From NCBI GenBank assembly GCA_022601195.1, contig JAHZIX010000006.1, positions 16,629 to 80,628 on the forward strand: a stretch of DNA of 64,000 bases. The letters are read 5' to 3'. How positions within the stretch are numbered: the stretch's first letter is position 1; the number at the start of each line of letters is the position of its first letter. This DNA is from Deltaproteobacteria bacterium (GTDB lineage: Bacteria; Acidobacteriota; Thermoanaerobaculia; Multivoradales; JAHZIX01). The notes beneath the pieces are model-generated. The model saw only the letters and a list, made by a program, of their open reading frames with translations, did no database searches and was not told where the DNA came from. The translations under genes and the position numbers were made by a program. Shown one piece after another: positions 37,204-62,015 of this stretch.

Positions 37204-38664
37204 TTGGTGGGCAACGGGGTCGGCGCGATGATAAGGCATTTACCTTTGATCCTCGCGGTCTTCCTTGCTCTTGTCCTTTTCTTGATACCTCTACCGTTCG
37301 GTGGAGTGACTCCTTGGGCGGCGTCCTGGACGCAAATCCTCTGCTTCCTGGGCCTATCTCTGGCTTTGGTCCGGGCTCGTTCTATGGCCTATTTCAAGCC
37401 AGTTCGAGCTCCCGCCTTAGCACTGGGGGCGATCGCTTTGCTGGGTACTTTACAGGCCTTGGCCTGGCCGGCTGGCTTAGTGGGGTGGATTTCCCCCGAG
37501 CATTTGGAAGCCCATCGCGCTACAGCGGAGATGATCGGTAAGGGGAAGGGTGAGGTGATCTCTTCGGGTGCTCCTCATCTCAGTTTGGCGCCGGAGGTGT
37601 CCCGGCGGGTCGCTCTCGGCTGGGCAGCGCTAGCAGCTCTAGTTGCTGTAGCTGGGGTCGTCGGTCGCCATCGCTGGCATCGCCGAGCCTTGGCTGGGGG
37701 CCTTTTGGCGGCCGCTTTCTTCCAAATTTTCTACGGAGCTCGCCGGTGGCTCAGTGGCCTGACCACCATCTGGGGGGTCGAAGTTCCCGGCTCTTCCGAT
37801 CGGCTTCGTGGCACCTTCGTCAATCCCGATCATCTGGCCCTCTTTCTCGAGATTGGGCTGGCTGTCGTGTTCGCCTGGTCTTGGTGGGCGCTGCGACAAT
37901 CTGCCCGGCGCCATCGGTGGGAACGACGACTCCTCTTGGTTGGACCTCCGCTGATCTGCTGGTGCTTTCTCTTCGTGGCCCTCGCCTTTACGGGTTCGCG
38001 AGCCGGGTTGGTTGCGGCGGTGATCGGAGTCGCGGTACAGACTTTCCTCTTGCTGTGGCTAGACGGGCGCCATCGGTGGCGAGCGGTGGGGGTGGGCCTA
38101 GGGGCGGTAGTGATCGGTTTACTTGCTATCGGAGTGACCGGGGCGAGGTTTGGATTCGGCCGCCTCCTTGCCACCTCACCCTACGAGGTCACCTTCGGGG
38201 CACGATTCGAAGCAATACGCAGCAGTCTCACCCTGTGGCAGGAATACCCTTGGCTGGGGACTGGCCTAGGCACCTTTCGAGACGCTTTTCCCGTCGTCCA
38301 ACCTCTGACGATTCGCGGTGGCTCCTGGCGCCATGCCCATAGCGATGTCGTTGAGCTGGGGGTCACCACGGGAGTTCTTGGGTGCCTCCTATTCGCCACC
38401 GGCCTGGCCTTTTTACTGGTTCATCTGGTTCGGGTGCTTCGCTGGGGTTGGTCTTCTGAGGATCGAGCGGCTGGTCTTGCTGCCCTGGGGGCCATCGCTG
38501 CCGTTGGGGCTCACGAGTGGGTCGACTTCGGCTTGACGATGCCGGCCAACTCCCTGGCGTTGGCCGTCGTGTGTGGTGCAGCAGCGGCTGCGCGGCTCGA
38601 CTTGGAAAAGGTCACCTCCCCCGGAGTAAAGAGGACCGGGGCCAAGGACTCCAGCTCGAGGTAG
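37204..38664 (+). CDS. O-antigen ligase / Wzy_C-family membrane protein
   Basis: FTGSRAGLVAAVIG, EYPWLGTGLGTFRDAF and HAHSDVVELGVTTGVLG are Wzy_C hallmarks. The start may be the internal Met9 (37228). It is divergent from the beta-barrel gene. Confidence 0.75.
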   Translation: MVGNGVGAMIRHLPLILAVFLALVLFLIPLPFGGVTPWAASWTQILCFLGLSLALVRARSMAYFKPVRAPALALGAIALLGTLQALAWPAGLVGWISPEHLEAHRATAEMIGKGKGEVISSGAPHLSLAPEVSRRVALGWAALAALVAVAGVVGRHRWHRRALAGGLLAAAFFQIFYGARRWLSGLTTIWGVEVPGSSDRLRGTFVNPDHLALFLEIGLAVVFAWSWWALRQSARRHRWERRLLLVGPPLICWCFLFVALAFTGSRAGLVAAVIGVAVQTFLLLWLDGRHRWRAVGVGLGAVVIGLLAIGVTGARFGFGRLLATSPYEVTFGARFEAIRSSLTLWQEYPWLGTGLGTFRDAFPVVQPLTIRGGSWRHAHSDVVELGVTTGVLGCLLFATGLAFLLVHLVRVLRWGWSSEDRAAGLAALGAIAAVGAHEWVDFGLTMPANSLALAVVCGAAAAARLDLEKVTSPGVKRTGAKDSSSR

Positions 38665-40745: not shown

Positions 40746-42170
40746 GTGCCCGAAGGTAGATCCAGTCGAGGGGCCGTCATTTTGTCTCGTTCTAAGACCA
40801 CCAGAAAGAAACGCGGAGCCGGAGGGAAGCTCCTGGGGGCCGGACTGGGGCTGCGGCTGGACCGGGCGGCCGTGGTGCTGGGAGAGACTTTCTTTTGGCT
40901 GTTGTTGATCTCCGTATGGTGGTTTCATGACCCCGAAGCGAAAGACGCCTTCCGTTTGCCAAAACAGGTCTTGAGTCAAGGCCTTGCTCTCGCTTCGATT
41001 TGCGCCCTCTGCTGGCGCCTGCGGGGAGCCTCTCTGGGTCTAGGCCAGATCAAGCGATGCCAGGTAGTGAGAGCTCTGGTGCCTTTACTCCTGGTGGCGA
41101 GCTTGGGACTGGTCTTCTCTCGATATCCCCTTCATTTGCAGGACGCCCTCACCTCACTGGCTATCGGTAGTTTGGCTCTGGTGGTGTGGAGTTGCTGGTT
41201 GCCGGTCGAGACTCTGAACCGCCTGGTTGGTGGGATCGTCGTACCCGGCGTTGCTTCCGCCCTGGTGGGTATTTCCCAGTTCCACGGCATTTGGCGGCCC
41301 TTCGATTTTGCCGGCGAGTTGGAGTCCCAGAGACTTGGTGTCACCTCCTTTGCTGGTAGCGCTGGGGACCTGGCCGTTTTCTTGGTTCTGCCTTGCCTAA
41401 TCGCTCAGCAGCGATGGGTGGTGAGTACGGGGCGTCGACGCTGGGGGTGGGCCGCAGCGCTGGCGATCTGCCTGTACGCCCTGGCGGTAACTCAAACCCT
41501 CTCTGCCCTGGTCGCCTTGATCGTGGGAAGCCTAGTGTTCTGGCTGATTTTCGCCTCCACCAAGCGGGTTCTGGCAGTGGCTACCGGCCTAGGTCTTGCG
41601 GCTAGCTTGTTGATCCTCGTTTTGGCTCCACTGAGGGCGCGAGTGGTCTCTAAGGTTCAGTACCTGGCGAAGGGAAAAATCGATGAGGTTCTGACCGGCC
41701 GTCTCGACGGCTGGAAGGGAGCCTGGTGGATGTTGTCAGAGAATCCTCTCACTGGCGTCGGGTTGGGGGGCTATCGGGCGGAGTTCGCGACGGCCAAGAT
41801 GGCCCTTGTCGACCAGGGAGTTGAATTTTTCCGCGGCCAGCACCAGGTCATGTTTGTGAACGCCCACAACGAGTTTCTGGAGGTTGCTGCAGAACTGGGA
41901 TGGCCGGGCTTGGTGGCCCTTGCCTGGGCTCTCTGGGTTCTGTTTCAAGTGCTGAGAAATCGCACCTCCCGAATCCAAGGAAAAGACGCACCGGCCCTGG
42001 AGCTACAGCCGAGATCGCGGGCGGATTCTGCTCTCGCTTGGTCTGGAGTGACCGGTTTGGCGGTTTGCTCTCTGGCCCAATTTCCCTTTCGCCTGGCCAT
42101 GGTGGCGTTTCCGGCTATCCTGTTTCTGGCCTGGGTGTTTGCTCGCCAAAGCTCGGAGGAACCATCTTGA
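40746..42170 (+). CDS. O-antigen ligase / Wzy_C-family membrane protein
   Basis: TGRLDGWKGAWWMLSENPLTGVGLGGY and VNAHNEFLEVAAELGWPGLVA (H-N-x-x-L-E) are Wzy_C motifs. About 12 TM helices. Confidence 0.7.
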   Translation: MPEGRSSRGAVILSRSKTTRKKRGAGGKLLGAGLGLRLDRAAVVLGETFFWLLLISVWWFHDPEAKDAFRLPKQVLSQGLALASICALCWRLRGASLGLGQIKRCQVVRALVPLLLVASLGLVFSRYPLHLQDALTSLAIGSLALVVWSCWLPVETLNRLVGGIVVPGVASALVGISQFHGIWRPFDFAGELESQRLGVTSFAGSAGDLAVFLVLPCLIAQQRWVVSTGRRRWGWAAALAICLYALAVTQTLSALVALIVGSLVFWLIFASTKRVLAVATGLGLAASLLILVLAPLRARVVSKVQYLAKGKIDEVLTGRLDGWKGAWWMLSENPLTGVGLGGYRAEFATAKMALVDQGVEFFRGQHQVMFVNAHNEFLEVAAELGWPGLVALAWALWVLFQVLRNRTSRIQGKDAPALELQPRSRADSALAWSGVTGLAVCSLAQFPFRLAMVAFPAILFLAWVFARQSSEEPS

Positions 42171-42196: not shown

Positions 42197-42622
42197 ATGA
42201 TGTTGACCCTGTTTGCACTGGTATGGCAGGTCCAGGATGGCCGCAAGCGCATGGCGGCGAGTCGACTCCTCTACCGGGCCGAGGCCATTAGTCTCGAAGT
42301 GATGGCGGCGGGAACAGCGCCGCGGGCCTATCTGCAACAGAACCTGCGTGATTTGCGGCGGGCAGCGAATCTAGACCCCCTCGAGGCCGCTATCCCCTTA
42401 GCTCTGGGCAGCCAGTTCCTACTCCTCGATTCCCCCCAGGCGGCTCAAGAGGCCTATCTTCAGGCCTTGGAGATCGAGCCCCGTCCGGAAACCTACCTGA
42501 ACCTCGGAAAAGCCCAGTTCCGTTCCGGTCAAGAGGAAGCTGCTCGGGAGAATTTCGACCGAGCCATCAAACTCGACTGGCATTTCAAGTCCGAGATTCC
42601 CAGACAAGCTAGGGAACGGTGA
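42197..42622 (+). CDS. Small TPR-like protein (start uncertain)
   Basis: AQEAYLQALEIEPRPETYLNLGKAQFRSGQEEAARENFDRAIKLD forms TPR repeats. The ORF track starts at 41900, inside the preceding gene; Met100 is taken as the start. Confidence 0.35.
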   Translation: MMLTLFALVWQVQDGRKRMAASRLLYRAEAISLEVMAAGTAPRAYLQQNLRDLRRAANLDPLEAAIPLALGSQFLLLDSPQAAQEAYLQALEIEPRPETYLNLGKAQFRSGQEEAARENFDRAIKLDWHFKSEIPRQARER

Positions 42623-43820
42623 GCGTCCAAGCGGAAGTGTCACCGGACTCGAAGCCGTCGGCAAAGAAGGGCGCGACCAAACCCTGGTAAACGAAGACTC
42701 CACCGGGCTCCAGCACCCCAAAACGCGGCGCGCCGGCCAACACCGAATCTCCTCCGATGCACACGGAGGTACCCAGTTCATCTCCCTCGAATCCGTTGAG
42801 GGCCGACAGTCGAGCCACCTGGTCCCAGTCGTCCCCGGAGCGCCAGTAGACATAGGCAGCACCGCGGGCTACATCGACCCGCGCGGGATGGTGAGTGTCC
42901 TCTTTAGGGGCTCCTACGATGAGGGTGTGACCGTCGAGCTCGACACTGCTCCCGAAGCGTGCCCCTGACTGAGTGCCGAAGAGAAGCGTCCTAAGCTGGA
43001 AGAACCCCACAGCGTCGGCTTTGTAGAGGTAGATGGCGCCCATGTCCGTGCCAAATATGGTGTCCTCGAAGGGCGCGCCGACCGCTAACCAATCGCCGGA
43101 AAGGGAAAGGCTGGCGCCAAACCCATTTTCAACCTCTTCTCCTGGCGCCCTGATCGTCCCGAAGTCGAACCAGATTCCAAGGGGGTTGCGAGCTCGCAGG
43201 AAGACCTCACCGGTGAGGCCGTTTCCGAAGTTGGGGTCACTGAAGGCGAGGCGAGAGCCATCGAGGTCCACGCTGGTGCCGAGGCTGGAGAGCGGAAAGG
43301 GATTCTGCTGATGGAAATCCAGGTGCCACTGGGCACCATTCCAGCGGTAGACGTTGATTTCGCGATCGATCACGACCCCGAGGGCCAAGAGGTTGTCGGA
43401 GATGGCCAAGGAGTCTGCAGGACCCAGCGCCGGAAAGAGGACTCCCGGGTCCGACTGAGCCGAGCCATCGGTCCAACCACGCACCTCGGTCCCGGTAGGG
43501 AGTTGGTAGGCGAATTGATGGGAATCAAGAGCGGACACTGAGGCGGAATTGAGAAACTCCAGTCCGAGCCATTGGTTCGAAGATTGGCGAAAAAGCATGT
43601 GGGTCGCCGTGAAAGTACCGGCTGCTGCTCGCCGGCCGTTACAGGAGAGTTTTCGCCCGTAGAGATCCCCGACGATGCCTCCGATAATCGAATGGGTCTC
43701 GACAATTTCAGGGATCTCGCCGGCCTCCAGAGGAGAGGCCAGTGGAAAGGCAAGCGCCTGGATGGGCAAGAGTGCGAGAGCCAGGAGCAGGGCTGTGGAC
43801 GGAGAGATTTTTCTGTTCAC
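42609..43820 (-). CDS. Secreted FG-GAP-repeat (integrin-alpha-like beta-propeller) protein with C-terminal GFESGD..AW tag
   Basis: Signal peptide MNRKISPSTALLLALALLPIQALA. Repeats FGASLSLSGDWLAVGAP, FGSSVELDGHTLIVGAP and GAAYVY. Ends ...FFADGFESGDTSAWTLTVP*. Confidence 0.7.
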   Translation of the reverse strand: MNRKISPSTALLLALALLPIQALAFPLASPLEAGEIPEIVETHSIIGGIVGDLYGRKLSCNGRRAAAGTFTATHMLFRQSSNQWLGLEFLNSASVSALDSHQFAYQLPTGTEVRGWTDGSAQSDPGVLFPALGPADSLAISDNLLALGVVIDREINVYRWNGAQWHLDFHQQNPFPLSSLGTSVDLDGSRLAFSDPNFGNGLTGEVFLRARNPLGIWFDFGTIRAPGEEVENGFGASLSLSGDWLAVGAPFEDTIFGTDMGAIYLYKADAVGFFQLRTLLFGTQSGARFGSSVELDGHTLIVGAPKEDTHHPARVDVARGAAYVYWRSGDDWDQVARLSALNGFEGDELGTSVCIGGDSVLAGAPRFGVLEPGGVFVYQGLVAPFFADGFESGDTSAWTLTVP

Positions 43821-44028
43821 GGGAAGTTCCTTTCGGTAGTGGTGATGGGTCGAGGAAATCGCCCTGCGAAGAAGCTTGAAGGTCGCTGGGTTTCGGTCGA
43901 GGCCACCAGGAGGTGACTTCGGGAGATCTCCAATGCCTTCTTCGCAGGACAGTGAACCTCTCGGTCCCTACCTACCTAGAGGAGAGAGAGCCGTCGTTTG
44001 CTCACCGGCGACCTTCGGTAATCGCCGT

Positions 44029-45528
44029 TCAAGGAAAGCTCGCCGACCAAGCAGCGGCATCCCCGGACTCGAATCCGTCGGAGAAGATCTCGGGACCCGG
44101 CGGGTGGGAGTTGGCCTCGTAGGCGCCGCTGTGGCAGAACAGGCCCAGCCGTTGGGCGCCTCGCTGGTCGGTCGGGGGGCAACTAGTGGAGGCAACGAGA
44201 AGGGTAGTGCCGTCCGCAGAGGGCAGTAGCGCGTGGGTCGGAGTGGGTCCGCCGTACCCGGCGAGGGGACGCAGAAGGGGTTTTGTGGTCGTCACATCGC
44301 TCACGTGATCGAGGCTGCAAAAGGTAGAAGGAGCGCCGCCCATGGGGTGTTCCACATTGAACCCGATGGAAGTGATGCCTCCACCCATGCACTCTCCTTC
44401 GATGATCGAAGAGAAGAGAGTCAAGGTCGAGCCGGTGGCGAGGTCGAGGGATGCGGGCATCCCCGAGCCGTGGGCTTTGATGGTCGAGAACGAGATTCCG
44501 AGGTTCGAATTCTGGGCCGCTAGATCCGTACCGCCGCCAAGGGGTGCAAGAGATTGGTTTGCACTGAGAGTCGTATTGCGCACGAGCAGTTGGCTATTCT
44601 GGATGAAGATGCCTCCTCCCGAAGAGCTGGTGCCGGCTAGCCTTCCAGCAACATTGCTGGCAATGGTGGAGTCGAGAATGAAGAAGGAGCCGCTCCCTAG
44701 AAAGAGACCACCGCCTTGGGAGATGGTCGTGGAGGCGGCCCCAGCGGTGTTGTTTTCGAAGCTCGAGCGCTCGATGGAGATCGGAGTGGATCCGCCGAAA
44801 AACAAACCGCCACCACCGTTGCTTGCTGCGACATTTCCTCGGGCCAAGACTCCATCGAAGGCGACGGTGGAATCAGAAGACTGGATGAAGAACGCCCCCC
44901 CGTTGCCACCACTGTTGCAGTCCGCGAAAGAGACATTTGTGAGGCTCAGGGTGCCCGGGGAGCTTGGCGCCGTCCACTCTAGGCAACCGGAAGAGGCGGC
45001 AGCAGTTCCGCCGATGAAATGGATACTCTCCATGGTGAGGGAGGCGCCATGGAAGAAGCGGAGGGAACCGCCTCGATCGTCCGTGGCGCCGTTGTCGGCA
45101 GATCCTCCAAGGAGAGTCAAGGGCCCTTGGAGGAGGATATCGCCGGCACCGAATCGAACGTCTAGAATTCGGTCCGCAGTGAGTTGTTGAACAATGGGAT
45201 GAGCTCCCGGTTCTGCCTGCACTGTCAGGTCGCCACCACCGGGAGTGAAATCGAGGTCGCCACTGGCAGCGGCGTCCTCGGAGGCACCTTCGAGAGTCAG
45301 CGGATAGAGCCCGTCCGGTAGCACCACTGTGGAGCTATCGGCGCTCTGATTTGCCTTGCGAATGGCTCCCCGCAAAGAACAATCGTTCTCAGTAGAGATA
45401 TCGCACCCATCGGCGCTGATGACGTCATCGAATCGGTCTACCACAAGGATCTCTAGAGCTAGGCAGGGGCTGGCCCGAAGAAGAAGAGCAAGAGCCAAGA
45501 AGGCGGCAGCAGGATGTCTCATATTCAC
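44029..45528 (-). CDS. Secreted right-handed parallel beta-helix repeat protein with C-terminal GFESGD..AW tag
   Basis: Signal peptide. CSLRGAIRKAN motif. Gly/Ser/Asn-rich beta-helix coils (GGGLFFGGS, GGGIFIQNS). Ends ...IFSDGFESGDAAAWSASFP*. Confidence 0.7.
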   Translation of the reverse strand: MNMRHPAAAFLALALLLRASPCLALEILVVDRFDDVISADGCDISTENDCSLRGAIRKANQSADSSTVVLPDGLYPLTLEGASEDAAASGDLDFTPGGGDLTVQAEPGAHPIVQQLTADRILDVRFGAGDILLQGPLTLLGGSADNGATDDRGGSLRFFHGASLTMESIHFIGGTAAASSGCLEWTAPSSPGTLSLTNVSFADCNSGGNGGAFFIQSSDSTVAFDGVLARGNVAASNGGGGLFFGGSTPISIERSSFENNTAGAASTTISQGGGLFLGSGSFFILDSTIASNVAGRLAGTSSSGGGIFIQNSQLLVRNTTLSANQSLAPLGGGTDLAAQNSNLGISFSTIKAHGSGMPASLDLATGSTLTLFSSIIEGECMGGGITSIGFNVEHPMGGAPSTFCSLDHVSDVTTTKPLLRPLAGYGGPTPTHALLPSADGTTLLVASTSCPPTDQRGAQRLGLFCHSGAYEANSHPPGPEIFSDGFESGDAAAWSASFP

Positions 45529-47478: not shown

Positions 47479-48438
47479 TTGCGCCTCATGAAGGTAACCG
47501 AGCACCTGGAAAAAGCCACTCGTCCCTTGATTAGCTTCGAGATCATCCCGCCTCTTCGCGGAGGAGATCTCAAGAGTCTTCTTGGGTTGATCGACGATCT
47601 GATGACTTGCCGACCACCGTTTATCGATATCACCAGCCATGCGGCTGAAGTGGTCTACGACGAGACCCCGTCCGGTATCGAGAGGAAGGTCAAACGCAAG
47701 CGCCCTGGGACCCTCGGTGTCTGTGCTCTGATTCAGAACAAATACAACGTAGATGCTGTGCCTCACATCCTCTGTCGCGGCTTTACCCGGGAAGAAACCG
47801 AGGACTTCCTCATCGAATTGCGTTACCTAGGGATTGAGAACGTTCTCGCGGTTCGTGGGGATGATAGCGGTTACCAAAAACCTCTCCGCGATGGCCGCAG
47901 CGCCAATCACTTCGCTTCGGATCTCGTCGCCCAAGTCGCCGATATGAACGGCGGTAAGTACGTCGAGGCCCACCTACTGGATGCTCAACCATCCGAATTT
48001 TGTATCGGCGTCGGTGGGTACCCGGAGAAGCACTTCGAGGCGCCTAACCTAGAAGCCGATGTTCGGTGGACCAAAGCCAAAGAAGAAGCTGGCGCTGACT
48101 ACATTGTGACGCAGATGTTCTTCGACAATCGGCACTATTTTCGCTACGTCGAGGCCTGCCGTGCCGCAGGGATCACCATTCCGATTATTCCCGGGCTGAA
48201 GATCATTACCAGCAAGAAACAGCTCAGCAGCGTGCCTCGGACCTTCTTCGTAGATCTGCCCACTGCGCTCGCCGATGAGGTGATGGAGGCGAAGAAGGGG
48301 CACGTTGCGGACGTCGGGGTAGAGTGGGCACTCAAGCAAAGCGAGGAATTGCTGAGCAGCGGAGTTCCTTCGGTTCATTTCTATGTCATGGCGAGCTCTA
48401 GGGCCGTTCTACGGGTGGTAAAGAAACTCGATGTCTGA
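47479..48438 (+). CDS. metF: 5,10-methylenetetrahydrofolate reductase
   Basis: ISFEIIPP N-terminal motif, 319 aa. Its 3' end overlaps the metH start by 8 nt. Confidence 0.9.
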   Translation: MRLMKVTEHLEKATRPLISFEIIPPLRGGDLKSLLGLIDDLMTCRPPFIDITSHAAEVVYDETPSGIERKVKRKRPGTLGVCALIQNKYNVDAVPHILCRGFTREETEDFLIELRYLGIENVLAVRGDDSGYQKPLRDGRSANHFASDLVAQVADMNGGKYVEAHLLDAQPSEFCIGVGGYPEKHFEAPNLEADVRWTKAKEEAGADYIVTQMFFDNRHYFRYVEACRAAGITIPIIPGLKIITSKKQLSSVPRTFFVDLPTALADEVMEAKKGHVADVGVEWALKQSEELLSSGVPSVHFYVMASSRAVLRVVKKLDV

Positions 48439-51400
48439 AAATTCCAACGCTTCTGCTGTATCCAATGGACTCTCTGTGGCGAGCCTCGCTGCGGATACGC
48501 CACTCCCCCCTCGGGCCGCGGATCTCGAGAGTCGCCGGGCAGCCTTGCTATCGGCCCTGGAAGAGCGGATCCTGGTGCTCGATGGAGCGACCGGGACAGC
48601 ACTTCAGGATGCCGAGCTGGGCCCGGAGGATTTCGGTGGCCCGGAGCTCGAGGGTTGCAACGAGCTACTCTGCGTCACTCGTCCCGATGTCGTGGACAAA
48701 GTCCATGATCGCTACCTGTCTGCCGGAGCAGATATCGTCGAGACCAATAGTTTCGGCTCGACCCCCTTGGTGTTGGATGAGTATGACCAGGGTTATCGAG
48801 CCTACGAGCTGAACCGAGAGTCAGCCCGGCTAGCGCGAGTCGCCTGCGCTCGGTTCGATGAGCCGGGCCGGCTGCGGTTCGTCTGTGGCTCCATGGGACC
48901 GACGACCAAGGCCATTTCGGTCACCGGCGGAGTGACTTTCGAAGAGTTGATGGATCATTTTCGGATCCAGGCTCTCGGCCTCATGGCAGGGGGCGCGGAC
49001 TATCTTCTCCTGGAGACCTGCCAAGACACCCGCAATGTCAAGGCGGGGCTTCTGGGTATTGAGCAAGCCTTCGAGGAGAGCGGGTGGCGCCTACCGGTAG
49101 CGGTCTCTGCCACCATCGAGACCACCGGAACGATGCTCGCGGGGCAGGATGCCGAGGCCTTGGCGGTCTCCCTTCTCCATTCCGAGCTGCTCTACCTAGG
49201 CCTCAACTGCGCCACCGGTCCCGAGCTCATGGCAGACCACCTTCGGACTCTCTCGGAGCTCTCCCATACGCGCATCGCCTGTGTCCCCAATGCCGGCCTA
49301 CCGGACGAGGACGGCATCTATCAGGAGGGGGCCGAGGATTTTCGGCGGGTTTTCGACCGTTTTTTCGCCTCCGGCTGGTTGAACCTCGTGGGCGGATGTT
49401 GTGGCACCACCTCTGAGCACGTGGAAGCCCTGGCGGACCTGGCCCGTAGTCACCGACCTAGAACCATGTCCGTTCATCAGAAAGCCTTGGTGTCCGGCCT
49501 CGAGGCCGTGGAGCTCACGGACGACAACCGCCCCCTCATGGTGGGGGAGCGCACCAACGTGCTCGGCAGTCGCAAGTTCAAGCGCCTGATCCAAGAAGGC
49601 AAGTTTGAGGAAGCGGCGGAGATCGGCCGGGGGCAAGTCAAGGCCGGGGCTCAGATCATCGACGTTTGCCTACAGGATCCGGACCGAGACGAAATGGAGG
49701 ACGTGGAGCGTTTTCTCGATCAGTTGGTGCGCTTGGTAAAAGTGCCGCTGATGATCGACTCGACAGACGCCGAAGTCATGGAGCGGGCTCTCACCTATTG
49801 CCAAGGCAAGGCGGTACTCAACTCCATCAACTTGGAAGACGGCCTGGAGCGATTCGAGCAGGCCGTACCATTGGCCCGTCGATTCGGTGCTGCGTTGGTC
49901 GTAGGGTTAATCGACGAGCAGGGCATGGCGGTCTCCGTCGAACGCAAGCTTGAGGTCGCTCGCCGTAGCTACCAGATCCTCACCGAAGACTTCGGCCTCC
50001 CTCCCGAGGATATCTGGTGGGATGCCCTGGTGTTCCCTTGCGGCACGGGGGACGAGAATTACATCGGCTCCGGTGGCAGTACCATCGAAGGGGTACGAGC
50101 TCTCAAGAAAGAATTCCCCCTTACGAAGAGCATTTTGGGGGTCTCCAACGTCAGTTTCGGTTTGCCTACTGCCGGTCGAGAGGTCTTGAACTCGGTCTTT
50201 CTTTTTCATGCTACCCGTGCCGGTCTCGACACCGCCATTGTCAACAGCCAAAGGCTAGCTCGGTATGCGGAGGTGCCTCAGGAAGAGCGTGAGCTGTCCG
50301 AGAAGCTTATTTTCCTCGAGCCTGGTGACGTGGCCGGCAGCGAGGGCGCGGTCGAGAAATTTGCCGCTCACTTTCGAGGCCGGAGTGCCCTGCGGGAGGT
50401 GCAGCCGCGCAGTGAGCTGCCTTTGGACGAGCGCATCTCTAGGGCCGTGGTGGAGGGGAGCAAGATCGGTCTGGAGAGCGACCTGGCCCTGGCTCTGGAA
50501 GACGATCGATGGCCGGAGGCTTTGGACATCATCAACGGGCCGTTGATGACCGGTATGAAGGAAGTCGGTCGGCTATTCAACGACAACCAGTTGATCGTTG
50601 CCGAAGTGCTGCAGAGCGCTGAGGTCATGAAAGCCGCGGTTGCTTTTCTGGAACCCCATATGGAGCGGGCTGAGGGGGCCTCCCGAGGCAAGATTCTGCT
50701 CGCTACGGTCAAAGGGGATGTTCACGATATCGGCAAAAATCTCGTCGACATCATCCTTAGCAACAACGGTTTCGAAGTGGTCAATCTGGGCATCAAGGTG
50801 CCCAGTGAGCAGTTGATTCAAGGAGTCCGAGAGCACCAGCCGGATCTGATCGGCTTGTCCGGTTTGTTGGTCAAGAGCGCGCAGCAGATGGTGACCACGG
50901 CGGGTGATTTGAAAGCGGTTGGAATCGACATTCCTCTGTTGGTGGGAGGGGCCGCGCTGACCAGGCGTTTCACCCACAAGAAGATCGCCGCTGCTTACGG
51001 GGGGTTGTGTACCTACGCCAAGGATGCCATGTCGGGCCTTCATCTGGTGGAAAAGATCAACGATACCGAAGCGAGGCCGGCATTGGAGTCAGAGATCGCC
51101 GAGCTGGTGCGGTTGGACACCGAAGCCGCTGCCCAACAAGGTAGCGCCGGTCGTCGTGAGCCCAAGCAGCGGAAGGAGACCGTTTCTCGGGATATGGCCG
51201 CGCCCCAACCCTCCGACCTGGTGCGCCACGTGGTCGACTTGGATCTGGATGAGGTCTGGCCGCTGATCAATCCCCAGATGCTATACGCGAAGCATTTGGG
51301 CCTTCGGGGCTCGGCCGCCAAATTAGCGGCGGCGGGAGATGCCAAATTCCTGAAGCTCAAGGAAGTCATCGACGAGCTACAGAGCTTTGGCCGATCCGGT

Positions 51401-51967
51401 GCCATGTCGTGCCGTGCCGTCTGGCGTTTCTTCCCGGCCCAAACCAAGGGTGATCAGCTCGTCCTTTTGGATCCGGACAGCGGTGATCCGGCAGCCACCT
51501 GGACCTTGGCCCGGCAAACCGGGGGTGGTTTGTGCCTTACCGATTACGTCCTCGAAAACGATCACGTGGCTCTGTTCGTCACCACTGCCGGGCATGGAGT
51601 GCGAGCCCAAGTGGAGGAGTGGAAAGAAGCCGGTGAGTACTTGAAGAGTCACGCCTACGCAGCGATGGCCTTGGAGACCGCAGAGGCAGCAGCGGAGTGG
51701 GTACACAGTCATGTGCGCAAGGCTTGGGGTTTTCCGGACCCTCTGGAGCTGACCCCCAAAGACATCTTTTCCACGCGCTATCGAGGCCGCCGCTATAGTT
51801 TCGGTTACCCAGCCTGCCCAGACCTCGAAGGGCAGCAGGCCCTTTTTCGAGCCCTGGCTCCGGAGGAGGTGGGAGTTCAGCTAACCGAAGGAGACATGAT
51901 GGACCCGGAAGCCTCGGTCTCTGCACTGGTTTTCCATCACCCGGAAGCCAAGTATTTCGGAGTGTGA
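48431..51967 (+). CDS. metH: Cobalamin-dependent methionine synthase
   Basis: 1178 aa. Hcy-binding, pterin-binding and B12-binding (GDVHDIGKNLV, DxHxxG) domains and an AdoMet reactivation domain are present in the canonical order. Confidence 0.95.
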   Translation: MSENSNASAVSNGLSVASLAADTPLPPRAADLESRRAALLSALEERILVLDGATGTALQDAELGPEDFGGPELEGCNELLCVTRPDVVDKVHDRYLSAGADIVETNSFGSTPLVLDEYDQGYRAYELNRESARLARVACARFDEPGRLRFVCGSMGPTTKAISVTGGVTFEELMDHFRIQALGLMAGGADYLLLETCQDTRNVKAGLLGIEQAFEESGWRLPVAVSATIETTGTMLAGQDAEALAVSLLHSELLYLGLNCATGPELMADHLRTLSELSHTRIACVPNAGLPDEDGIYQEGAEDFRRVFDRFFASGWLNLVGGCCGTTSEHVEALADLARSHRPRTMSVHQKALVSGLEAVELTDDNRPLMVGERTNVLGSRKFKRLIQEGKFEEAAEIGRGQVKAGAQIIDVCLQDPDRDEMEDVERFLDQLVRLVKVPLMIDSTDAEVMERALTYCQGKAVLNSINLEDGLERFEQAVPLARRFGAALVVGLIDEQGMAVSVERKLEVARRSYQILTEDFGLPPEDIWWDALVFPCGTGDENYIGSGGSTIEGVRALKKEFPLTKSILGVSNVSFGLPTAGREVLNSVFLFHATRAGLDTAIVNSQRLARYAEVPQEERELSEKLIFLEPGDVAGSEGAVEKFAAHFRGRSALREVQPRSELPLDERISRAVVEGSKIGLESDLALALEDDRWPEALDIINGPLMTGMKEVGRLFNDNQLIVAEVLQSAEVMKAAVAFLEPHMERAEGASRGKILLATVKGDVHDIGKNLVDIILSNNGFEVVNLGIKVPSEQLIQGVREHQPDLIGLSGLLVKSAQQMVTTAGDLKAVGIDIPLLVGGAALTRRFTHKKIAAAYGGLCTYAKDAMSGLHLVEKINDTEARPALESEIAELVRLDTEAAAQQGSAGRREPKQRKETVSRDMAAPQPSDLVRHVVDLDLDEVWPLINPQMLYAKHLGLRGSAAKLAAAGDAKFLKLKEVIDELQSFGRSGAMSCRAVWRFFPAQTKGDQLVLLDPDSGDPAATWTLARQTGGGLCLTDYVLENDHVALFVTTAGHGVRAQVEEWKEAGEYLKSHAYAAMALETAEAAAEWVHSHVRKAWGFPDPLELTPKDIFSTRYRGRRYSFGYPACPDLEGQQALFRALAPEEVGVQLTEGDMMDPEASVSALVFHHPEAKYFGV

Positions 51968-59185: not shown

Positions 59186-60478
59186 GTGAGTGCGATGAGT
59201 GAAGACAAGAGGTTTTGGAATATTCGGCCGGAATCAAGGCGTATTGCCCACCCACAAAAGGTTTATCTTAAGTTTCCAAACTCAGATGAGTTTATCGAGG
59301 AATACCTGGTCGATCTTTCGATGACCGGAATGTTCGTTCGGTGCATGAATCCACAAGAGTCAGGAACCACCTTCTCTTTCAAGATGCGGCTATCTGCAGG
59401 GGCCTCTACGGTACAAGGAACCGCGGAGGTGGTATGGGTTCGACAGGACCAGCATCGCCTCTCCCATCCGAAGGGAATGGGGGTTCGATTCGTTCACCTA
59501 GAACCGGATAGCCGTCGACAGATTCAGGAAACTGTAGAGAGGTATGCTCAGGATCCTGGAGAACCCCAGGAGATGAGTCATCTGCGCTCGGTGGTCGAAG
59601 AGACCCTGGGAGAGGTTCTTGCTCCTTCCGACGAAAGTGTTGAGGCCGAGGAAATTTTCGCTCCAGGTCCCCAAGAAGCGGCCACGATTAGCCTAGAGAT
59701 ATCACCACCCGAAACGAGTTCGGCCACCGACGAAAGGGTTGGGATGGTCGTTGAGGGCAAGGGGTCTCGCAATCGCTGGATTTCTGTAGCTGCAATCTTA
59801 CTGCTTTGTGCTGGTTTGGGTGTGTTCTTCTGGGGGCAGGGTCGAAGAGCTCCCAAACCGGTGGCGACGGTAGCCGAGGGTGGACCTGAGCCCTCAACGA
59901 TCTCACTACCTCAGGCCAGCACTTCCCCACCGCCGGGATCTGCGGCGACTGTTAGTCCTTCCTCGAACCCGGTACCCCCCGTGGAAGGAAGTGAAGTGGC
60001 TGGCGATTCCTCTTTGGCCGTTGAGAGCCCGGTGCAGGTGTCGTTAACAGAAGAGTCTGCCGTGCCAGAGAGCGCTGCAATGGAGGAGTCTCCAAAGGTT
60101 GCTGAGGAGACAGCTCCGCCCCCTGTTGTCGAGAATCCAGAGCGTTTGCTGTTGAGCATCGTAGAAGGATGGGCGGATGCTTGGTCGAGTCAGGACGTAG
60201 ACTCCTATCTGTCGTTCTACTCGGATCGATTTCGGCCTTCTCGAGGTCTTAGCCTGGTCGATTGGCGCAAACAGAGAAGAACGCGATTGAGACGACCTAG
60301 TTTCGTTTCAGTAACCGTATCGAGCCCTACAGTCTCCGCCCAATCGAACGGAAATATGGAAGTTCGTTTTGTTCAAACCTATCGATCGAATACCTTGGAC
60401 GATACGGTTTGGAAGATTCTGGAGTTTGCCCAGGAAGGAGAATCTTGGAAGATTCTTCGAGAGCGGGTTGACTCCTGA
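59186..60478 (+). CDS. PilZ domain - TM helix - Pro/Ser-rich linker - NTF2-like (SnoaL/DUF4440-like) domain protein
   Basis: The N-terminus has RPESRR (RxxxR) and DLSMTGMFV (DxSxxG), the canonical c-di-GMP-binding PilZ motifs. The TM helix is WISVAAILLLCAGLGVFFW. The C-terminus (EGWADAWSSQDVDSYLSFYSDRF...WKILRE) has an NTF2-like pattern. The start is GTG at 59186 or ATG at 59195. Confidence 0.6.
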   Translation: MSAMSEDKRFWNIRPESRRIAHPQKVYLKFPNSDEFIEEYLVDLSMTGMFVRCMNPQESGTTFSFKMRLSAGASTVQGTAEVVWVRQDQHRLSHPKGMGVRFVHLEPDSRRQIQETVERYAQDPGEPQEMSHLRSVVEETLGEVLAPSDESVEAEEIFAPGPQEAATISLEISPPETSSATDERVGMVVEGKGSRNRWISVAAILLLCAGLGVFFWGQGRRAPKPVATVAEGGPEPSTISLPQASTSPPPGSAATVSPSSNPVPPVEGSEVAGDSSLAVESPVQVSLTEESAVPESAAMEESPKVAEETAPPPVVENPERLLLSIVEGWADAWSSQDVDSYLSFYSDRFRPSRGLSLVDWRKQRRTRLRRPSFVSVTVSSPTVSAQSNGNMEVRFVQTYRSNTLDDTVWKILEFAQEGESWKILRERVDS

Positions 60479-60776: not shown

Positions 60777-62015
60777 ATGAATGAACTGCTAGCTCGCCGA
60801 CCGGTTCCTGTGGAATCCCGCCGGATTCCTTTGGAGGCCACTGTCGTGCTGACCCAACCAGAAACGGGATTCTCTCGGGAGGTTGCCGGAGTCAACCTTT
60901 CCATGTCCGGTATGTTTGTGAGTAGCGCGGTTCTTTTAGACGTTGGCACGCTCGTTGACTTTCGTTTCGATCTCGGAGAAGACCAGCAGTCGATCCATGG
61001 CCGTGCAGAGGTGGTGTGGACTCGCGAGGATGCCAAAGGAATTCGATTTCCCAAGGGGTTGGGAATGAGGTTTTTGCGCCTCGATGCGGAGTGCCGGAGA
61101 CGGATTCGAAAAGCCGTGGAGAGTCTGATTCAGGAGAGCGACGCGCCTCCGGAGCTACGAGAGTTGCGGATGGTAGTGGAGGAGACTCTGGAAGACATCC
61201 TGAGTCTGGAATCTCCTGCCCCTGTGAACCCGCCGGCTTTGCTCAATGAGCGCACCCCGCACCTTGCCTCGGAATCTCGGGCGATGGTGGCTCGGTCAGA
61301 ATTGGGCAGCGGCAGATGGCTTCCCATCATGGGTATCGGACTTTTGGTCTTGCTCGTTGTATCCGGTTCGTATTTCCTAGCTCGACGCGGGCCACAGGTT
61401 CGTGGGTCACAGGTCGCTAGCCAGAGTGCCTCTGCCGTTTCCGATCTGCCCGCTACCAAGGCTCCTGATCTCGCGAGGCAGCTGGAAGCAGACCAGGATG
61501 AGTTGACGGAACTCAGAGGCTTCGGTCCTGACGAAGCGCTCTCGGTTTCGACGGACAAGACAGTCAAGGCGCCTCCTGGGCGCGAGCAAGAGTCGCTGGT
61601 AGAGACAGGAGAAGCTCCGGGCCTAGCTCTGGTACCAAACTCTAACGGCCCGAAGAAGATTGCTAGTCATCGAGTGAGAGAAGAGGTGCAGAGAGTCGTG
61701 ATGGGGTGGGCCAAGGTATGGTCGGACCAAGAGCCGGAGCGCTATCTTGAGTATTACTCGAGACGTTTTGTACTCCCTGACGGACTCAGTAGATCTCAAT
61801 GGGAGTCGCAGCGACGCCAGCGAATCTCGCAGCCTCAGTTCGTGAGAGTCAGCCTGGTTGATCTCGAGGTCGCGATACAGCAGGAGGATCTGGTTCAGGC
61901 TCACTTTCTCCAAAACTATCGGAGCGACAGCTTCGAAGATGCGGTTCGCAAGACCCTACATCTGGTCCGTGAAGATGATGCCTGGAAGATCTCCCAAGAG
62001 CTATCGGGTCCCTAG
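60777..62015 (+). CDS. Paralogous PilZ-like - TM - linker - NTF2-like domain protein
   Basis: The N-terminus has ESRRIP and VNLSMSGMFV (NxSxxG), with the RxxxR motif degenerate. The TM helix is WLPIMGIGLLVLLVVSGSYF. The C-terminus (MGWAKVWSDQEPERYLEYYSRRF...WKISQE) is homologous to the C-terminus of the upstream paralog. Confidence 0.55.
   Translation: MNELLARRPVPVESRRIPLEATVVLTQPETGFSREVAGVNLSMSGMFVSSAVLLDVGTLVDFRFDLGEDQQSIHGRAEVVWTREDAKGIRFPKGLGMRFLRLDAECRRRIRKAVESLIQESDAPPELRELRMVVEETLEDILSLESPAPVNPPALLNERTPHLASESRAMVARSELGSGRWLPIMGIGLLVLLVVSGSYFLARRGPQVRGSQVASQSASAVSDLPATKAPDLARQLEADQDELTELRGFGPDEALSVSTDKTVKAPPGREQESLVETGEAPGLALVPNSNGPKKIASHRVREEVQRVVMGWAKVWSDQEPERYLEYYSRRFVLPDGLSRSQWESQRRQRISQPQFVRVSLVDLEVAIQQEDLVQAHFLQNYRSDSFEDAVRKTLHLVREDDAWKISQELSGP

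Follow-up and report, generated by a model that had tools for sequence, protein, structure and literature searches.

A short C-terminal tail shared by unrelated exported proteins of Acidobacteriota, a candidate sorting or anchoring tag

In the 64,000-nucleotide stretch of contig JAHZIX010000006.1 analysed here (hereafter the window), two adjacent genes of the minus strand code for exported proteins of different folds, an FG-GAP beta-propeller and a right-handed beta-helix, and both proteins end in a tail of 19 residues, FFADGFESGDTSAWTLTVP in the propeller and IFSDGFESGDAAAWSASFP in the beta-helix. The tail is modular and conserved, it stands mostly at the C-terminus of proteins with signal peptides, it is swapped with sorting tails among homologues and its occurrence is restricted to a lineage. 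The chances appear about even that it is an autonomous, lineage-specific mini-module serving as a C-terminal sorting or anchoring cargo tag which, as we infer, is read in trans.

The coordinates of the two open reading frames (ORFs) and both of their tails proved to be exactly as described in a first-pass annotation of the window, and its statement that the folds are unrelated was borne out by the domain assignments (FG-GAP_2 in one protein, Beta_helix and choice-of-anchor Q in the other). Its remark that the proteins end 6 residues after the Trp has to be corrected, as 5 residues follow the Trp in both and the stop codon takes the position +6. A six-frame regular expression scan of the 64 kb returned these two copies of the tail and no third. 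When the two proteins were compared by BLASTP, the one significant alignment was the tail (E=6e-5). At the DNA level 42 of the 66 tail nucleotides are identical, thus the copies do not stem from a recent local duplication, and since BLASTP aligned the tail alone, local duplication was ruled out as the origin of the shared ending. In the beta-helix protein the tag begins at residue 481; this protein scores above the cut-off of the choice-of-anchor Q model, and an 8-residue stretch with the Pro/Gly-rich HPPGPE lies between that domain and the tag.

The possibility that the motif occurs in these two proteins only, which the first-pass annotation had named as fatal to its idea, is clearly contradicted by its spread. 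A synthetic tandem-tag query against an index of 5.8 billion proteins returned 59 short, otherwise unrelated fragments, nearly all of which end in ...[ILF]FSDGFESGDTSAWSxTVP; this search yields short fragments by the way it chooses candidates, and its counts are not representative. A tail profile (A3) built from these first matches gave 5,907 matches at E<=1e-3, 52 of them at E<=1e-10, among 1.84 billion cluster representatives (50% identity). The DNA of 185,579 species genomes (596 Gb) was also scanned for the exact core DGFESGDxxAW at any position, and at least 118 loci encoding it were found. From typical amino-acid frequencies, chance would account for an estimated 2-5 matches in all 596 Gb, and the core match is far beyond that. 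Since the exact core was used in the scan, tails close to the consensus are favoured in it.

The consensus of 211 non-redundant terminal tails is [ILV]-F-[SA]-D-G-F-E-S-G-D-T-S-A-W-S-x-[TVS]-V-P-COOH. Conservation sets in at the third residue ahead of the Asp, behind a Pro- and Gly-rich segment at positions -7 to -4. It is strongest at D, G, F, E and W, not at Ser or Thr, and the tail as a whole is acidic, amphipathic and Pro-ended, with no transmembrane (TM) segment and no basic residues. Its end is fixed: 5 residues follow the W in 159 of the 211 tails, and Pro is the last residue in 143 of these 159. Among the matches listed in the DNA scan, the stop codon came exactly 5 residues after the W in 64 of the 105 in-frame matches outside the window, and 0-7 residues after it in approx. 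90% of the exact-core matches. All three stop codons are used after the tail, and the median open frame downstream is 37 codons; readthrough or recoding into a downstream domain was ruled out by this variety of stop codons together with the shortness of the downstream frames. In 38 orthologues of the beta-helix protein (39-58% identity) the window of the tag belonged to the top 5% of conserved 19-residue windows. The part behind the Trp is more alike within genomes than between them (similarity 0.305 versus 0.221, pairs of different loci only; 10 of 5000 permutations reached the observed value), which fits co-variation with a common reader.

The 85 tagged ORFs taken from the loci listed in the DNA scan match 58 Pfam families. 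FG-GAP, Beta_helix, the InhA-like MAM domain, peptidases S8, M36, M14 and M28, trypsin-like and BNR/sialidase-like proteins are found among them, as well as GH8, PAD_porph, LVIVD, GSDH and lactonase propellers, and this cargo range is the usual extracellular and surface repertoire. A signal-peptide-like N-terminus was counted by a crude rule in 57 of the 85 ORFs and in 6 of 85 in the reversed-sequence control. The carriers of terminal tails among the matches listed, taken as indicative, were overwhelmingly Thermoanaerobaculia, Holophagae and unclassified metagenome-assembled genomes (MAGs) of Acidobacteriota, including 'Multivoradales' and 'Sulfomarinibacteraceae', both of the Thermoanaerobaculia; single examples outside this range in the same list came from one Polyangiaceae MAG and one Kangiella MAG. 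Several MAGs contain at least 3-5 tagged genes each, and a cluster look-up of ten tagged proteins returned metagenomic sources only. The submitter label of both window proteins (P0183 and P0303) is 'Deltaproteobacteria bacterium' and their nearest homologues are labelled Acidobacteria; the label of the source bin may be wrong, as the homologues and the range of the tail point to Acidobacteriota.

Comparison of homologues placed the tag in a position otherwise occupied by known sorting tails. In 120 beta-helix homologues the choice-of-anchor Q domain closes with a conserved sequence, ...DQRG..R....CD[IA]G[AS]YE, and in 47 of them, including distant ones of approx. 30% identity, the tag follows directly behind it. 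The same slot is filled by IPTL-CTERM-like tails (VPTLS, a TM segment and a basic end) in P0249 and P0281 and by other tails with a TM segment and a basic end in P0238, P0240, P0276, P0293 and P0296, and in some homologues nothing follows the domain. In case of the FG-GAP_2 homologues, 12 carry the tag, one has an IPTL-like tail (P0420) and one a MYXO/PEP-like tail with a TM segment and a basic end (P0343); some end in a dockerin-like manner and most have nothing there.

Another short ending was observed in the same slot. In 15 of the 120 beta-helix homologues (P0231, P0239, P0246, P0255, P0267, P0274 and others) a TM-less [FY]LPL[IV]x[RK]-COOH tail follows the choice-of-anchor Q domain, for which no named signal was found, and the FG-GAP homologue P0310 ends in the similar YTYLPFILK. 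Like the tag it is very short and without a TM segment, but its sequence is unrelated, hydrophobic with one basic residue. Shorter relatives of the tag itself close the FG-GAP homologues P0330, P0351, P0353, P0318 and P0358 (...IFADGFEAATP*, ...VFADGFDGAAAR, ...LLRDGFEGGTR), and their sequences suggest that C-termini of the type xF.DGF[ED] form a broader family, which extends beyond the Acidobacteriota.

The predicted structures indicate that the tag is probably not packed on its cargo. The AlphaFold2 model of the beta-helix protein had a mean predicted local distance difference test (pLDDT) value of 89.7, with the tail at 40-47 and undocked; in the propeller the body was above 90, while the last approx. 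23 residues fell from 62 to 45 and made no contact with the propeller. In both models, which were calculated with family alignments, the tail was without regular strands and without packing on the body, and since it is free in two such different folds, this argues against its being an integral strand or cap. The best fold matches of the beta-helix model in the Protein Data Bank were Rhombotarget A (9cdu/9cdv), followed by alginate C5-epimerases and lyases; Rhombotarget A is among the Acinetobacter type II secretion substrates (PMC5861075). When the solved structures were searched by sequence with the tail profile, one chance match was returned, methane monooxygenase at E of approx. 1.

The origin of the motif was indicated by its non-terminal copies. 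The top-scoring profile matches are large proteins with 2-6 internal copies, each of which opens a repeated domain of 170-290 residues, and 170-195 residues follow where an internal copy is the last one. These internal copies align, at sub-threshold scores and in constant register, to positions 1-6 of PF14099 (Polysacc_lyase), PF02018 (CBM_4_9) and PF06439, all of them ConA-like jelly rolls, and the N-terminal strand motif of such folds, xF.DGFE.G...W, is present in the proteins with internal copies. Against the solved structures a motif-bearing jelly-roll protein gave a weak match to a carbohydrate-binding-module-like (CBM-like) chain from cargo of the type IX secretion system (T9SS) and no other. 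Among the matches listed, complete jelly-roll domains with the motif occurred in Actinobacteria, Chloroflexi, Bathyarchaeota and Haloarcula loci, while in the Acidobacteriota loci the first 19 positions of the domain matched and nothing beyond; in the window proteins the stop codon after the tag leaves no jelly-roll body (approx. 130-210 residues). Terminal copies favour GD-T-SAW...TVP, the copies at domain starts GD-[LF]-SAW. By sequence likeness, the tail is probably homologous to the first strand region of a jelly roll, or a close mimic of it, which has become an autonomous unit. The other objection which the first-pass annotation raised against its own idea, that the tail could be the cut-off beginning of a known domain, thus holds in the evolutionary sense, given the alignment to the first positions of PF14099, CBM_4_9 and PF06439, but not in the sense of an accidental truncation.

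The motif was also found directly after signal peptides (P0175, P0148, P0156, P0113) and as tandem mini-repeats 21-70 residues apart, joined by linkers of P, S, T and G (P0068, P0082, P0074, P0088, P0103, P0159). The best 150 of the 5,907 matches, a list biased toward multi-copy proteins, contained 67 terminal instances, 96 with at least 120 residues after them and 29 with 13-119. In P0076 a choice-of-anchor Q-like end is followed by a complete jelly roll starting with the motif, a PSPPPTPD linker and a terminal tag; therefore the full domain and the detached tag coexist in one chain.

In Pfam-A (2025) and NCBIfam (June 2026) no model covers the tail, either in the full proteins or alone at E<=10, and full-text literature searches found no paper with the motif string or describing the tail. 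These negatives agree with the initial impression that it has neither a TM nor a basic region and belongs to no named motif. PEP-CTERM signals consist of a Pro-Glu-Pro motif, a hydrophobic TM helix and a C-terminal Arg/Lys cluster, and their exosortase (EpsH/XrtA) is often encoded in an exopolysaccharide (EPS) locus; in FFADGFESGDTSAWTLTVP and IFSDGFESGDAAAWSASFP there is no PEP, no hydrophobic stretch and no basic residue (TIGR02595), and the signature, TM segment and basic tail of GlyGly-CTERM, IPTL-CTERM and LPXTG are absent from both as well. The tag resembles PEP-CTERM, IPTL-CTERM, GlyGly-CTERM and MYXO-CTERM in being a short, multi-copy, lineage-restricted C-terminal region of unrelated Sec-exported proteins, and in following 'choice-of-anchor' domains, where it is swapped with such tails in homologues; rhombotargets are GlyGly-CTERM proteins. 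Unlike these signals, it lacks the combination of motif, TM helix and Arg/Lys cluster. Since there is no membrane-spanning segment, an intramembrane transpeptidase or protease could not engage it as it does those signals.

With the C-terminal domain (CTD) of T9SS cargo the tag shares the lack of a TM segment, the C-terminal position, a diderm phylum and part of the cargo (S8, M36, PAD_porph, BNR, FG-GAP). However, the T9SS CTD (TIGR04183/PF18962) is a folded beta-sandwich of approx. 70-100 residues from Bacteroidota, while the tag has 19-20 conserved residues, matches no model and belongs to Acidobacteriota. The jelly-roll domains PF14099, PF02018 and PF06439 have the motif xFxDGFE(S/T)Gx(L/F/T)SxW in common with it, but in the tagged Acidobacteriota proteins no domain body follows. 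By analogy to dockerin-cohesin pairing and to donor-strand complementation, a terminal module, sometimes in tandem, could join many enzymes to a scaffold; the tag is much shorter than a dockerin and no partner domain was found. The type I signal of RTX proteins goes with the lack of an N-terminal signal peptide, a poorly conserved C-terminal signal and adjacent genes for the ATP-binding cassette (ABC) transporter, membrane fusion protein and TolC. This does not describe the tag: both window proteins and the same 57 of 85 tagged ORFs have signal-peptide-like N-termini, and the window encodes a single ABC transporter, a Wzm/Wzt-type one for polysaccharide. The tag would belong to the C-terminal cargo tags, with a mechanism which could prove new.

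According to the model proposed, Acidobacteriota of the Thermoanaerobaculia and Holophagae type, the source organism of the window among them, would add the tail through a short Pro/Gly-rich linker to unrelated Sec-exported proteins. After Sec export an envelope component, which may be a receptor, a translocon or a processing enzyme, would bind the tail as an exposed peptide or hairpin, and this binding in trans would retain, translocate or process the cargo. The tail would have been derived from the first beta-strand region of a ConA-like jelly roll or would mimic it. In the window the tag would send the beta-helix protein, with its epimerase/lyase-like fold, and the FG-GAP propeller to the cell surface or matrix. 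Judged by analogy, the tag could well be functionally equivalent to the PEP-CTERM, IPTL-CTERM and GlyGly-CTERM tails and to the T9SS CTD, and mechanistically different from them because it has no membrane-spanning segment. The first-pass annotation had taken the tail for a sorting, processing or anchoring signal recognised by a dedicated machinery; a conserved module on unrelated exported proteins, in the slot of sorting signals, was indeed found, while the dedicated machinery is a postulate of the model.

Several points weigh against a sorting or anchoring role. Neither the window nor the recurrent neighbours yielded a candidate for a sorting enzyme, a receptor or a transporter. All-against-all clustering of 3,132 ORFs from the 118 loci listed gave Ser/Thr kinase-TPR proteins, extracytoplasmic function (ECF) sigma factors, sulfatases, short-chain dehydrogenases/reductases and efflux pumps as recurrent untagged neighbours; a conserved protease, transporter or ligase was not among them. 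The C-terminal position is not strict, as the module also occurs after signal peptides and in internal tandem repeats, hence a mechanism which needs a free C-terminus cannot be universal. Some genomes shorten the part behind the Trp (W*, WQ*, WSL*). The likeness of tails within genomes could stem from paralogy or gene conversion, and part of the conservation could reflect structural ancestry, the motif being the usual first strand region of complete jelly rolls elsewhere.

Two side observations concern these loci. The variants behind the Trp differ by lineage: ...SSHNP, ...xxR, W-Q-stop, W-stop and short irregular ends were seen (L088, L092, L038, L019, L035, L041, L056, JAUIJL01), and in the JAUIJL01 MAG all five of the five sampled tails were shortened or irregular. 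Pairs of an ECF-type sigma factor and a large Ser/Thr kinase-TPR protein adjoin tagged genes in L019, L022, L040, L052, L084, L115 and others, with ORFs of the kinase cluster in 14 of the 118 loci among the matches listed; this pairing may just mirror the abundance of such pairs in Acidobacteriota.

The same data can be read in other ways. It is possible, with a lower probability, that the tail is a binding or structural mini-module without a sorting role, an aromatic-clamped, perhaps Ca2+-binding beta-hairpin placed at either end or between linkers, which might attach proteins to the polysaccharide matrix of the cell, bring about multimerisation or shield the terminus against exoproteases, with no dedicated machinery. 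The copies after signal peptides and in tandem repeats speak for it, as do the equivalence to the first strand region of ConA-like/CBM_4_9-like domains, the position of both window genes inside an EPS cluster and the failure to find a machinery; besides, the FExG strand of ConA-like folds is often part of a structural Ca2+ site. However, the terminal position and fixed end of approx. 90% of the exact-core copies listed are unexpected for a position-free module, among homologues the tail stands in place of genuine sorting tails, and carbohydrate binding is improbable for a peptide of 19 residues by itself. It is improbable that the tail acts as a glycan acceptor, with SGDTSAWSxT O-glycosylated or joined to polysaccharide by a ligase of the Wzy_C/PglL type and the protein thereby tethered to EPS or lipopolysaccharide (LPS), on the model of T9SS cargo attached to anionic LPS (A-LPS). 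The tail is rich in Ser and Thr, and Wzy_C-domain genes flank the tagged genes of the window (40746-42170 and 37204-38664); one of these Wzy_C genes has a weak match to TIGR03097, the exosortase-associated putative O-glycosylation ligase (32.5 bits, cut-off 188). Against this, the conserved residues are not the Ser and Thr, Wzy_C genes are not among the recurrent neighbours in the 118 other loci listed, and their adjacency in the window is due to the location of the genes in the EPS locus itself.

Just as doubtful is the proposal that the tail is a donor beta1-beta2 hairpin, inserted in trans into an envelope-anchored jelly roll which lacks its own first hairpin, a non-covalent docking with a logic borrowed from pilus donor-strand complementation and cohesin-dockerin pairing. 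In sequence the tag is equivalent to the strand region with which complete jelly rolls begin, the Acidobacteriota loci listed contain the 19-residue piece and in no case the remainder of the domain, the models predict a free tail, and tandem copies would give multivalent docking; but the reasoning is purely structural, and no hairpin-less acceptor was present in the window or in approx. 0.9 Mb of sampled loci, a small sample not designed for this purpose. That the tail is a neutral stub devoid of function, left behind by a lost C-terminal carbohydrate-binding or jelly-roll domain or produced by a local duplication, is scarcely credible. The motif is of the same type as the N-terminus of PF14099/CBM_4_9-like domains, yet it occurs thousands of times independently with the same precise end, and the conservation among the orthologues effectively refutes this idea; the use of three stop codons, the lack of a downstream domain (the next features of the window are 0-208 nt downstream) and the divergence of the two window copies also stand against it. 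The most far-reaching version of the sorting-tag reading would be that this is the first TM-less sorting or anchoring signal of approx. 20 residues in diderms, a detached jelly-roll hairpin read by complementation or by a dedicated outer-membrane or periplasmic partner, and that the Thermoanaerobaculia and Holophagae thus have a new sorting system, the cargo families of which number from hundreds to thousands; we consider this rather unlikely.

The features of the two genes are collected in Table 1. The beta-helix protein has 499 residues from its GTG start and 497 in the public gene call (P0183), where the start is the ATG two codons downstream of the GTG. Many of its homologues bear the source name 'CSLREA domain-containing protein', and the NCBIfam CSLREA model gave no match in the protein at E<=0.01.

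Table 1. Coordinates of the two tagged genes and of their features in the window
Feature	Position	Strand	Details
FG-GAP beta-propeller gene, exported, tagged	42609..43820	-	403 aa; Pfam FG-GAP_2 E=6e-23; same protein in public gene call
C-terminal tag of the propeller, FFADGFESGDTSAWTLTVP, 19 aa	42612..42668	-	translation; fits the consensus; stop codon 42609-42611
Predicted Sec signal peptide of the propeller, (M/V)NRKISPSTALLLALALLPIQALA	43749..43820	-	by inspection: basic n-region, hydrophobic core, A-x-A-type site
Right-handed beta-helix gene, exported, tagged	44029..45528	-	Pfam Beta_helix, NCBIfam NF041518, CSLREA-like motif
C-terminal tag of the beta-helix protein, IFSDGFESGDAAAWSASFP, 19 aa	44032..44088	-	translation; stop codon 44029-44031
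Choice-of-anchor Q domain, residues 417-472	44113..44280	-	NF041518, 42.6 bits, cut-off 25
CSLREA-like motif CSLRGAIRKAN near the mature N-terminus	45349..45381	-	translation
Predicted Sec signal peptide of the beta-helix protein, (M/V)NMRHPAAAFLALALLLRASPCLA	45457..45528	-	by inspection

The window lies on a MAG scaffold of 424 kb (ENA ERZ23491219, DHAR22-1 scaffold_6), and nearly all of it (1-64000) is one very large locus of polysaccharide biosynthesis and export. It contains the Wzm/Wzt ABC transporter, many GT1, GT2 and GT4 glycosyltransferases, methyltransferases, NeuB, UbiA and PMT_2, as well as three Wzy_C genes, Wza (Poly_export), a Wzz/GNVR tyrosine-kinase-type (Wzc-like) protein, CpsB, Bac_transf and an MBOAT/AlgX pair. 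A polyprenyl glycosylphosphotransferase gene lies directly upstream of the beta-helix gene. Downstream, the beta-helix gene is followed by a 208-nt spacer and the FG-GAP gene by an overlapping convergent gene: at 42609-42622, where the final codons of the tag and the stop codon lie, its 3' end and that of a convergent TPR gene share 14 nt. The called genes of the window include none for an exosortase, a rhombosortase, a peptidase or a secretion system, and those of the window and its flanks together include no exosortase. The housekeeping genes MTHFR and MetH (47479-51967) lie in the middle of the locus. Just downstream of the EPS genes two adjacent paralogues with PilZ and Cds6_C (59186-60478 and 60777-62015, plus strand) may be the cyclic di-GMP receptors of the locus.

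C-terminal cargo tags are practical markers of the surface and secreted proteome, and through each of LPXTG, PEP-CTERM, GlyGly-CTERM and the T9SS CTD a dedicated sorting machinery was discovered. The tail described here is carried by many hydrolases and adhesins of diverse kinds in the Thermoanaerobaculia and Holophagae, abundant and almost uncultured Acidobacteriota of soil, sediment and wastewater. If it is a sorting signal, it predicts their exoproteome, points to an undiscovered recognition system unlike the membrane-embedded sortases and would offer surface display a compact tag of 19 residues. Should it be no more than a binding mini-module, the region of a single jelly-roll strand would have become an independent mobile unit.

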